This document shows positions 1-3,000 of a DNA stretch of 7,672 bases, piece by piece; within the stretch, counting starts at the first letter, position 1, and the number at the start of each line of letters is the position of its first letter. This DNA is from a virus. Lineage: Duplodnaviria > Heunggongvirae > Uroviricota > Caudoviricetes. The stretch lies in IMG/VR virus record IMGVR_UViG_2671181012_000010; one strand, 5' to 3'. Position numbers: made by a program.

Positions 1-3000
1 CTGTTTTGGTGTCAATGTCACTGTTACGGCGACACCGTATTTTGCCCAAATCAGGCAAAATTGCTTACCCGAACCCGGTAAATTTGCGCGCTTTTTCGAT
101 CATCGCGTATCGGTTTCGTTTTGCACTTCCTGTTGCGTTTCGTTTTTGAGAAAAATGCGCACTTTTTCCGGTGGCTTTTCCCCCTACAAGCCACGTCATA
201 TCTGGCTTTGCTCTGCTGGTCTGTGTGATCGATTTTGTGATCGGTTTTATGATCGATTTGCGCAGTTTTTTGCGCATTTTTTCAGGGATTTTTCACCCCA
301 TCGAAGAGGCTTCTAAGGGGCTGTGAAGTGGGTAGCATTTTGCTGTGATGGAAGGACTACCGCTACTGTCTGATAATGGTGACGGAGGCCGCTATGTTCG
401 GCTCTGATTGCAGCCTGCCGTATATTCACCAATTTACCTGGCTGTTATTTCCATAACCCGTAATGTCGCCGATCCCGTCTGATTCCCATATCGTCAACAG
501 TCTTATTTACAGCATCCTGAAGTTCGCAAGGCATATTTCCCGCCGTCTGGCTATATGCTCTCGCTGCGGATCGGTGTGGGCCTCTTTCATTACGTCAAGC
601 CAACGAGCGGCGGCTCTTCGCCATAGTCCCTGAGATTCCAGTTGTTCGGCTTTTTTATCAGTTATTGTGTCCATATTAACTTCCGTCTCTTCGCCCTGTT
701 TCACCCCTGTACTTCGTGCCCCGTAAAGGATCTTCTTTTTTCTGGTCAATCCCCATATCTTTAAGCGTTCTGGTCGCTGCTGCCCTGACGGCGCATACAT
801 GCCCCCACTCTGTTGTTTTTGGTCTGGTGGCTTTTGCCGTACATTGTGCCCTTCGTTGGGTAATATAGTGCCTCTCTTCATCACTTTTTGCCTGTCTGAA
901 CAATTCTCCCCAGCGTTCAGCAGCACGCCGCCAGAGGCCGCTATTCTCCAGCGCTTCAGCCTTGTCATCACGTATCATCTGTACCCCGCCGATTCTGTCC
1001 TTTCAAAATTTGCCTTATGGCTTATTGTATGAGGGATTCATCCTACAACAAGAAAGGTCACTATGAGACTGACGCAATACAAAAAAGAGATCCTCAGTTA
1101 CTTCACTCCTGACAATCTGTCGTGGGTCAGAGGTGAAATTGGTAACCCGCCGTTTGATGTCTCCGGTGTGGCTTACCTGCTGTATGGCATAGATTCACAC
1201 AACAACCGATATCAGCTCGAATCAACAAGGCGCACACTTGAAGCGATGGTCCGTGACGGTCTTCTGGAGCGGGTTAACGTGTATGAGCGGCGTGAGGGAA
1301 CAGGTGATGGTGTTCGTCGAAAGGTGGCGCGTTATGGCCTGCCTGGTCATTCTGTTGTGGTGCGTGACGGTGAGGGCCGGAACGGTGCAATTGACGGCGA
1401 ATGTATACGCATCAATGCTACAGATGTGGTGCTGGTGGACGGGCAATAAAAAACCCTGAATAACTCCGCTGGGTGCTTCAATTGCACGGGGCGAAATCCT
1501 TCAGGGTCAGCCGTAACGGGTCTCTGTACAGGTGGCTTCAGTTGCCAGAAGATGAACGCCCGTTACAGCCTGCTGTGATAAGCCGCTTTACAGTGAGCTT
1601 CAATTGCTCAAAGAGGCGCGTTTTTATCACAACTTTGCCACAATAACCCGCTGTACAGAGGGCTCCAGTTGCCCAAAGAGGCGCATTCTTATCGCGGCAT
1701 GACGAAATCACCGTGATGTTTTCGTCGTTCACTCATCCCGATGTGTGTGACAAGTACACATCAAAATGAGTGCCGAAAAGCCGCTGGCTGGCTTCATTCG
1801 GCGAGGCTCCCGTTGCCTGCGGAGAACACCATCAACGGCCTTTCGGTGGTGATTATAGCGAATCGCGATAATTGAGCAAATACGGCGATGAGATACGTAT
1901 CACGATAGCGCTAAATCGTCGCCTGCATCACTGAAGCTGTAATTTTTCCATTCATCCTGCGGATTAATCCCCATCTCTTTCAGCGTTCTGTCTGCGGCCT
2001 TTTTCACATCGCCAAAGGTGACGAACTGCTCAGGCATACGACGGGATTTAATGATGCATATCGCCCGACGTCTGGCAGCTTCCTCGCGCTCCCTGTCCGT
2101 TTCTGCGTGAAGAAGGACGTCAGAGCATCGGGTCGCCGCACGTCGCCATAAACCACGCTCCTCAAGTTTCTGTGCCACGCTGTCTGTTATCACTCTCACC
2201 ACCTCCCGTATCCTGCCACTGGATGTTTTGCTGTTTTATCTGCTCCAGCCTCCACATCAGTTGTTCGCTGGCTGCTGCTTTCTCTTTCTCCGTGACTTCG
2301 CCGCAAGGTTGCCCGTTCAGGTCGTACCGTGGGCCACCAGCAATAATCGCCTTAAGGTATCGCGTCGTGTGAAGGTGTGAGGTTAATGCGCCGCGTAATA
2401 CACCTGTAGCAAGTGGCAACTCCCGTGATTTAGCGTCCTCAAGCACATCACGTATTATGCCAGCCTTCAGGGGTTTTATATTCTCTGTCCCAAACAGCTC
2501 AGGCCAGTATTCCGCAATTCGATTTATTCGTCTGTGGTTTTTTCGTTGCTCTTTTGTCATGTGCTGCCACGGTATGCGCCGTGATGGTTTACGTGTGGTC
2601 TGGTCCTGTTGTGTGGTCTGCTGGTTCATGTTGTGCTCCTGTCATTCAGAACGGAATATCGTCAGAGAACGGGTCATCACCTCCCGCTGGTGGCTGATTT
2701 CCCTGCTGTCCGGTCTGTCGTTTTGCTCTTTCCAGTGCTTCGGTCGCCTTCCCCTGTTGCCCCCGCTTCCCGCCAGGACGCGCCGAACGGGCACTGATTA
2801 CGCTGTCAGCGATAACCTGCCAGCCCTGCCGTATTTCTCCGTTCTGTCCGGTCCACTGGCTGATCTGCATGTTACCCGCCACGCTGATAAGGTCGCCTTT
2901 TTCATGTCTCGCCAGCGCGTCGGCTTGCTTACCAAATGCCAGGACTGATAGCCATAACGTCGCCTGTCCGTCCTGTGCCTGACTGCATGGCAAAGATACC

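Follow-up and report, generated by a model that had tools for sequence, protein, structure and literature searches.

A fragment of a Stx-phage small-terminase gene with phased Dam sites as a candidate packaging site in an Escherichia coli chromosomal island

Headful-packaging phages commonly hold their packaging-initiation (pac) site within the small-terminase gene, terS. In phage P1 the site consists of seven TGATCA/G hexamers with a Dam site in each, and its cleavage is methylation-dependent (PMC10028697). Binding takes place on hemimethylated P1 pac and cleavage after further methylation, integration host factor (IHF) and HU serving as cofactors (PMC10028697 and works cited in it). The hexamers lie within pacA at nt 194, 201, 213 and 228 and at nt 324, 336 and 347, the second cluster having spacings of 12 and 11 nt, and cleavage is annotated at nt 276–285. 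Packaging signals have also been described in satellites. The phage-inducible chromosomal island (PICI) EcCICFT073 has its own copy of a helper-type signal, cos1, which acts with Rpp (PMC6739421), and a further E. coli PICI, EcCIMP1, has been experimentally mobilised by its helper phage Kapi1 (PMC11773190). Here these systems are compared with a short cassette in IMG/VR virus record IMGVR_UViG_2671181012_000010, a 7,672-bp stretch assigned to the Caudoviricetes and referred to below as the window. The window has an identical counterpart in the chromosome of the Shiga-toxin-producing E. coli (STEC) strain 2012EL-2448 and forms part of a PICI-like island. The cassette, at 95–285, derives from the terS gene of Shiga toxin (Stx)-converting phages and is proposed as a captured pac site.

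The cassette lies in a region that a first-pass annotation, made from the sequence alone, had picked out for a 3 × 12-bp repeat with a phased GATC triplet and a fourth GATC at 98. These features are borne out. GATC starts at 98, 227, 239 and 251, and the last three fall within a tandem repeat that Tandem Repeats Finder places at 224–259 (period 12, 3.0 copies, 87% matches), followed by a second array at 257–282 (period 12, 2.2 copies). Each phased site belongs to a TGATCG hexamer (226, 238, 250), and the hexamer at 97–102 is an inverted TGATCG. As the window holds 18 GATC in 7,672 bp, ~0.5 would be expected per 211 bp and four are seen, ~8 times the local rate. By our own arithmetic this gives a Poisson P of ~0.002, in which the three phased sites, as copies of one tandem unit, are not independent events. 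On the plus strand the region is strongly T-rich, with 42% T and 14% A. The TTTGCGC(A) cores next to T-runs described in the annotation are present too, with TTTGCGC starting at 83, 257 and 269 and T-run-flanked TGCGCA cores starting at 156, 259 and 271; the copy it had placed at 158–163 was two bases off, the true copy at 156 reading AATGCGCAC. The cassette is made up as follows.

95–285, minus strand (the terS sense strand): core conserved cassette, a terS-linker-like non-coding fragment and the proposed pac site.
96–103, no strand assigned: TCGATCAT, the solitary inverted TGATCG (GATC at 98), which is the invariant left edge of the cassette.
112–148, no strand assigned: two repeats, GGTTTCGTTTT / GCGTTTCGTTTTT, for which the terS sense strand reads AAAACGAAAC; homologous to GAAACGAAACGC (AETKR) of phage terS.
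156–161, no strand assigned: left-side TGCGCA hexamer, with 2–3 copies in other island variants.
162–223, no strand assigned: central unique segment CTTTTTCCGGTGG...CTGGCTTTGCTCTGCTGGTCTGTG between both repeat arrays, collinear in alignments with the middle of the terS linker.
224–259, no strand assigned: three 12-bp units, TGTGATCGATTT / TGTGATCGGTTT / TATGATCGATTT, with TGATCG hexamers; homologous to the four or five hexamers in 12-bp phase that encode IDH(E/K) repeats in Stx-phage terS.
257–282, no strand assigned: two TTTGCGCA(N)TTT units (TGCGCA at 259 and 271) and then T6; a plus-strand terminator-like hairpin.

The source of these repeats was found in viral terminase genes. Scanning IMG/VR for TTTGCGCANTTTTTTGCGCA gave 56 viral contigs against <1 estimated by chance. 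Leaving aside the contig of the island itself, 53 of the other 55 carry the motif antisense to a TerS open reading frame (ORF) of 250–378 aa. These ORFs share a conserved N-terminal helix-turn-helix (HTH; PDWxxLQQxFxxEHxxTGISPKEWCxxxGLNYxTARRYIKK) and score as small terminase in PHROGs, some also matching Pfam Terminase_2. The TerS of Sepvirinae Stx-converting phages makes up one subgroup, the L068 type, which is matched by 259 phage records, mostly of Stx2a, Stx2 and Stx1 phages, with the large terminase gene coming next. In Stx2-converting phage 86, nt 141–182 of terS hold four YGATCA hexamers (TGATCR on the other strand) at an exact 12-bp spacing, which encode KIDHEIDHKTDHEIDH and are followed by GAAAAATGCGCAAAAA...CTGCGCAAAT and GAAACGAAACG. 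Three phased TGATCR hexamers with T-tracts are found in 42 IMG/VR loci, comprising 40 Stx-type terS genes (one with five units), one locus of the island type and one unrelated locus.

Read on its minus strand, the cassette is collinear with terS through a TGCGCA array, IDHK-type GATC units, the central segment, TGCGCA and then AAACGAAACGCAACAG. The matching segments agree at 26/26, 31/34, 31/38 and 42/50 nt and overall identity is ~60%, with the two phage terS types being 67% identical to each other over that stretch. The same succession, with 12-bp GATC units, a second TGCGCA array and a closing GAAACGAAACGC, characterises the Sepvirinae terS linker (phage 86 gp12; PhiR12_3/L068 type). The phage segment is however translated (KIDHEIDHKTDHEIDH..EKCAKN..AETKR) within a TerS of 268–283 aa, whereas the island fragment is free-standing, has no start, HTH or C-terminal domain, and has its TGCGCA and AAACGAAAC units rearranged or duplicated. 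By tblastn only TerS residues 50–122 match the island, at window 54–260, and neither the HTH domain nor the C-terminal domain is found anywhere in it. In most variants a stop lies just upstream in the ancestral terS frame, whose two anchor motifs stand in relative frame 0, 1 or 2 depending on the variant. The homology is secure, and it is all but certain that 95–285 is a non-coding fragment of a Stx-phage-type terS gene corresponding exactly to its repeat-bearing linker. The phased-GATC region is a piece of a phage gene, which could not have been seen by a reader with the sequence alone.

Nucleotide searches gave little sign of this relationship. The window had no blastn match among phages and the cassette only 31-nt chance-level hits, while in plasmids only the SSB/primase part of the window was matched and the cassette matched nothing. 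Low-complexity filtering together with the ~60% identity probably hid the link to terS in BLAST. A 19-mer from the invariant block of the cassette gave chance hits only in 185,579 species genomes, and the one locus with two hits (L016) is unrelated.

One ORF has been annotated across most of the cassette.

65–277, minus strand: 70-aa ORF, hypothetical protein WP_001227788.1 of the Prokaryotic Genome Annotation Pipeline (PGAP); not a real gene.

PGAP annotates this ORF in some genomes, 2012EL-2448 included, and calls nothing in 34 of 40 sampled. It has no Pfam or PHROG match and its frame is not kept among the variants, in agreement with the first-pass view that the region has no credible ORF.

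In phage terS genes the hexamers behave as signals in the DNA. TGCGCA occurs 5–11 times per terS ORF in most cases, against a chance estimate of ~0.25 per kb, and is found in 2–3 codon phases within single genes. Across 48 distinct ORFs, Ala-Gln is written GCG-CAR in 252 of 288 cases, although GCG makes up only 32% of the Ala codons there. The codon before Ala-Gln ends in T in 249 of the 288, whichever the amino acid (ACT, AGT, AAT, GTT, TCT, GCT, GAT). As the hexamer is kept in all codon phases with strongly skewed codon choice, this points to TGCGCA being a DNA signal and not a protein signal. Among the terS genes of IMG/VR loci L063–L117, many enterobacterial small terminases of differing C-terminal types share the N-terminal HTH and a TGCGCA-packed linker, in which the hexamers occupy all three codon phases under extreme codon bias. 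HTH and linker appear to travel as a unit, which we would take for a DNA-binding domain with its pac site. A separate observation concerns Traversvirus vB_EcoP_phi419 (PV189407.1, record positions 59876–60661), whose deposited linear genome ends inside terS and whose record note describes a circularly permuted genome.

The cassette is present in 119 of 5,426 complete E. coli genomes and is chromosomal in all of them; among the matches listed, most are STEC, including O157:H7, O145 and O111. The alignment comprised ~20 distinct copies, taken from both genomes and metagenomes. A core that runs between TCGATCATC (window 96) and the final TGCGCA unit (~285) is kept at ~73–100% identity in these ~20 variants, with 96–124 invariant in 10 of them, while at least four unrelated sequences take the place of the left flank and at least three that of the right. 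The repeats vary in number, with 2–4 of the 12-bp TGATCG units per variant, 1–2 inverted hexamers in other variants and 3–5 TGCGCA per cassette among full-length variants. The GATC count ranges from 3 to 5, one unit reading TAATCG in some. In the O157 island copy, IS66 is inserted beside the cassette. Since the core survives and its hexamers vary in copy number while both flanks are exchanged, the pattern fits a cis-acting site rather than neutral spacer DNA.

This pattern also bears on an alternative in which the cassette is an inert pseudogene remnant with no present function. It would then be left over from the terS gene of an ancestral island, in the manner of pac-type Staphylococcus aureus pathogenicity islands (SaPIs), which carry their own. 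The cassette is clearly terS-derived and no longer codes, and such islands hold other decayed genes, for example frameshifted Icd-like genes. Simple decay is nevertheless at odds with what has been left, which is only the hexamer-bearing linker, with sharp shared edges in ~20 mosaic variants with exchanged flanks and without any HTH or C-terminal coding remnant in any of them. The hexamers are intact and have gone up as well as down in copy number, while the reading frame has been lost. On balance an inert remnant is unlikely.

The function of the linker in the phage is suggested by P1. A profile of the TerS N-terminal domain aligns with residues 3–41 of P1 PacA (hhalign probability 88%, E 3e-6), and PHROG cross-hits between TerS and PacA are reciprocal. 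In both phage genes, TGATC(A/G) hexamers that contain Dam sites lie just downstream of this homologous HTH-coding part. Hexamer spacing is alike as well, at 12 bp in the cassette (226, 238, 250) and 11–12 bp in the second P1 cluster, HEX3 (324, 336, 347). P1 has its own methylase, which is paralleled by a gene annotated dam in Stx2 phage 86. The two sites differ in that P1 has two clusters (4 + 3 hexamers; HEX4/HEX3) ~96 bp apart, with an IHF site and the mapped cleavage between them. Furthermore, P1 lacks TGCGCA arrays of the cassette type, and the cassette has no surrounding gene.

Among the readings considered, we lean towards window 95–285 being a captured pac site, at somewhat better than an even chance. 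This is favoured because the terS-linker homology has outlived the coding capacity, with the TGATCR and TGCGCA arrays kept and in places multiplied. It is also favoured because the homologous P1 PacA system has its pac hexamers at the equivalent place in pacA, and because satellites are known to carry copies of helper packaging signals, as in EcCICFT073 cos1 (PMC6739421). The phage arrays would be the sites bound by the N-terminal HTH domain of TerS to start headful packaging, mirroring P1 PacA. Upon induction of a Stx-type helper phage, the island would excise and replicate from its own origin at 3820–4100, described below. The helper TerS would then bind the hexamer arrays of the cassette and recruit TerL, which would cut nearby, and headfuls of the island concatemer would be packaged. 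The 12-bp phasing would set successive hexamers on nearly the same face of the DNA for wrapping around a TerS oligomer, and cutting may be licensed, as the analogy with P1 suggests, once the GATC hexamers are fully Dam-methylated. If the same analogy holds, the central segment at 162–223 is the candidate cleavage region.

The comparison with EcCICFT073 shows a similar strategy with different parts. Both islands would hold their own copy of a helper-type signal, but that of EcCICFT073 is a lambda-type cosQ/cosN with a private cosB that is read by a TerS-Rpp heterodimer (PMC6739421). Lambda cosN and P2/P4 cos were searched for in the present island and are absent, as is a recognisable Rpp, and its proposed signal is pac-type and terS-derived. 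A satellite-borne copy of a helper packaging signal belongs to a known class; what would be new here is that, by analogy, it points to the location and the P1-like nature of the Stx-phage pac site.

Several observations weigh against a working pac site. The cassette has one hexamer cluster and a single inverted hexamer 124 bp away, where P1 needs two clusters. P1 pac also needs IHF, and no IHF site (WATCAANNNNTTR with ≤1 mismatch) is found in 1–1600. Blastn against 50,697 phage genomes gave no relative closer than the ~60% terS genes, and no specific helper was identified. Literature searches found no mapped pac site for Stx-type phages and no experiment or read-end data on their packaging start. 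Finally, Asadulghani et al. saw no excision of any of the six prophage-like elements in the Sakai strain (PMC2669165), of which the O157 island copy may be one.

The terS homology on which the pac reading is based would serve equally for a decoy, in which the cassette binds the helper small terminase and its main effect would be to hinder the packaging of the phage or the expression of terminase. Satellites commonly interfere with the packaging of their helpers (PMC6739421), however no capsid-remodelling or terminase-redirection gene is recognised in the island, and a site present in single copy titrates weakly unless replication brings the island to high copy. As the chief role of the cassette, a decoy is rather improbable, and decoy and pac roles are not mutually exclusive.

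The phased Dam sites had led the first-pass annotation to a region under Dam/SeqA control, such as an origin or a methylation-sensitive promoter. Part of this stands, as the cassette is a conserved, non-coding cluster of Dam sites with the look of a cis-acting element, and its nearest functional analogue, P1 pac, is Dam-controlled (PMC10028697). The origin reading runs against the evidence, and the promoter reading is unsupported. In these the cassette would be a second origin or unwinding element of the oriC 13-mer kind, or a methylation-sensitive promoter for the 53-aa gene and Q. The units GATCGATTTTGT / GATCGGTTTTAT do resemble the oriC 13-mers GATCTnTTnTTTT, and as in oriC unwinding repeats and SeqA-bound clusters, tandem GATC sites about one helical turn apart are followed by T-rich DNA. 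The cassette is also upstream of a small ORF and the Q gene. Against this, no sigma-70-like promoter is found on either strand in 1–1100, and the GATC number is inconstant among variants, one unit being TAATCG in some. Initiator boxes and iterons do not adjoin the cassette and are instead 3.5 kb away, beside the replication gene of the island, and DnaA-box matches in 40–297 are T-rich and have one mismatch. The features concerned are the following.

3820–4100, no strand assigned: candidate replication origin, AT-rich DNA set among nine or more GCGGATA(W)/GTGGATAC iterons of both orientations, directly 3' of the primase-helicase gene.
4127–6265, minus strand: DUF927 primase-helicase (712 aa), the replication protein of the island.

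The candidate origin holds 4 of the 7 IHF-like matches of the window, a perfect DnaA-box match and a 20-nt perfect inverted repeat at 3824–3843/4077–4096. An origin at the cassette was rejected on these grounds. As terS-linker ancestry also accounts for the repeats without replication, we regard Dam/SeqA regulatory DNA of either kind as very improbable.

Other suggestions for the region were likewise dropped. A boundary or attachment site had been raised, with leftward extension as the means to check it; the island end was found ~2.8 kb further left, at a tRNA-Gly repeat (L001 9243–9266, L001 being the locus that gives coordinates left of the window). For an oriT-like site, nothing similar was found among 72,556 plasmids, and short resemblances to the nic regions of ColE1, RSF1010 and R388 were 8–10 nt long and in part confined to the variant in this window. 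Resemblances to CRP, OxyR, Lrp, H-NS and dif sites, seen by eye, were partial half-site matches. The small RNA Esr41 lies on another island, OI-43, and EcCIEDL933, a capsid-forming PICI, is a different element.

A small RNA gene had also been proposed, along with a terminator-like hairpin and T6. The hairpin exists, as a terminator scan finds TGCGCA-N6-TGCGCA (6–7 bp) and T6 at 259–282 on the plus strand, but such sites are not enriched, with 1 observed in 1.1 kb and 1.6 expected from shuffles. The 'terminator' is a by-product of two adjoining copies of the palindromic hexamer TGCGCA, and any two such copies would give a hairpin of this kind. It could still be argued that the hairpin ends an antisense RNA, perhaps a partner of the ProQ/FinO-family protein encoded 2 kb away, and hairpin and T-run are kept in most variants. 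However, the cassette region has no Rfam match and no promoter, and RNAalifold on 11 variants found compensatory change in 0 of 41 predicted pairs (covariation term +0.56). Fold z-scores are −1.2 on the plus strand and −2.6 on the minus strand. A small RNA or a working terminator is hence very unlikely.

The host island is ~15.5 kb long, adjoins tRNA-Gly and an ETT2 secretion-system remnant, and ends at the degenerate copy of the tRNA-Gly 3' end mentioned above. Its genes are nearly all on the minus strand, with few exceptions. They run from an integrase through an AlpA-family regulator (Phage_AlpA Pfam score 72.5 bits), Rha and AntA/B antirepressor-type genes, Icd-like genes, the DUF927 primase-helicase, SSB and the ProQ/FinO-family protein to three PerC-family genes, the cassette region, a 53-aa ORF and a Q antiterminator. 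The annotation includes neither capsid nor terminase genes. With its integrase, AlpA, DUF927 primase-helicase and adjoining iteron origin, a size within the ~10–20 kb class and no virion genes, the island is built like a PICI. EcCIMP1 shows the same int-AlpA-Ant-Icd-...-DUF927 primase order, PerC-family genes and a 128-aa plus-strand gene. It differs in having no cassette, in carrying ejection-protein genes and in using Kapi1 as its helper. A related island on an 11,437-bp metagenome contig (L036; ERZ1034876 NODE_1165) has a circularly permuted order and 10-nt identical ends, which fits an excised form, circular or concatemeric.

The Q gene gives a second tie to Stx phages. It lies on the minus strand at L001 10931–11323, ~0.7 kb left of the window start, and its product is 89% identical to Q of Stx1- and Stx2-converting phages (282 phage records at 80–90%). 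The island Q could act on the late promoter of the helper, which drives stx. In a wider proposal, the STEC islands are dedicated satellites of Stx phages with a P1-like, Dam-sensitive pac site taken from phage terS. Their Stx-type Q could switch on the helper late operon, including stx, so that Stx-phage yield and toxin output would be influenced, and the Sepvirinae pac site would be located in the terS linker. This combined proposal is tentative, and we hold it to be possible with appreciably less than even confidence. Literature searches on Stx-phage satellites found nothing relevant.

Further features of the island were recorded alongside. Around the Q gene, the 17-bp palindromes TTACGAAATTTTCGTAA and CTACGAAAATTTCGTAG are repeated at L001 10356–10372, 10475–10491 and 11391–11407, and further repeated blocks, GGTCATTATGACC, are found downstream of Q. 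These palindromes and blocks resemble operators or a structured late leader. On the minus strand at window 7291–7495, upstream of the Icd-like genes, a C4 antisense RNA is encoded (Rfam RF01695, 73.3 bits, E 2.5e-13), with sub-threshold matches to isrK and the c4-a1b1 target beside it. The C4 RNA and its neighbours are a P1 immI-type c4-icd-ant regulatory module within the island. A 144-nt direct repeat of 94% identity (7067–7210 and 7524–7667) lies inside Icd-like genes that PGAP marks as frameshifted or partial. At 1524–1693, three copies of a unit (CTGTACAG..GGCT.CA.TTGC.CAAAGA) with start spacings of ~62–65 bp occur between the third PerC-family gene and the 128-aa gene, and at locus L020 a block of this type directly abuts the cassette. 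The 128-aa gene (1063–1449) is the sole plus-strand gene there and has no Pfam or PHROG match; the copy in EcCIMP1 is 72% identical over 270 nt.

If the cassette works as a pac site, the islands of this family would hitch-hike on Stx phages. This would bear on the spread of virulence-associated regulators, namely the PerC-family genes and Q, and may bear on the amount of phage and toxin released per strain. For annotation, the PGAP 'hypothetical protein' at 65–277 is not a gene. For the Sepvirinae Stx phages, the comparison provides a concrete and testable location and architecture for the packaging site, as TGATCR hexamers in 12-bp phase and TGCGCA arrays in the terS linker. Small terminases with the PacA-type HTH form a much wider set, to which the comparison would also extend the Dam-controlled pac paradigm of P1.

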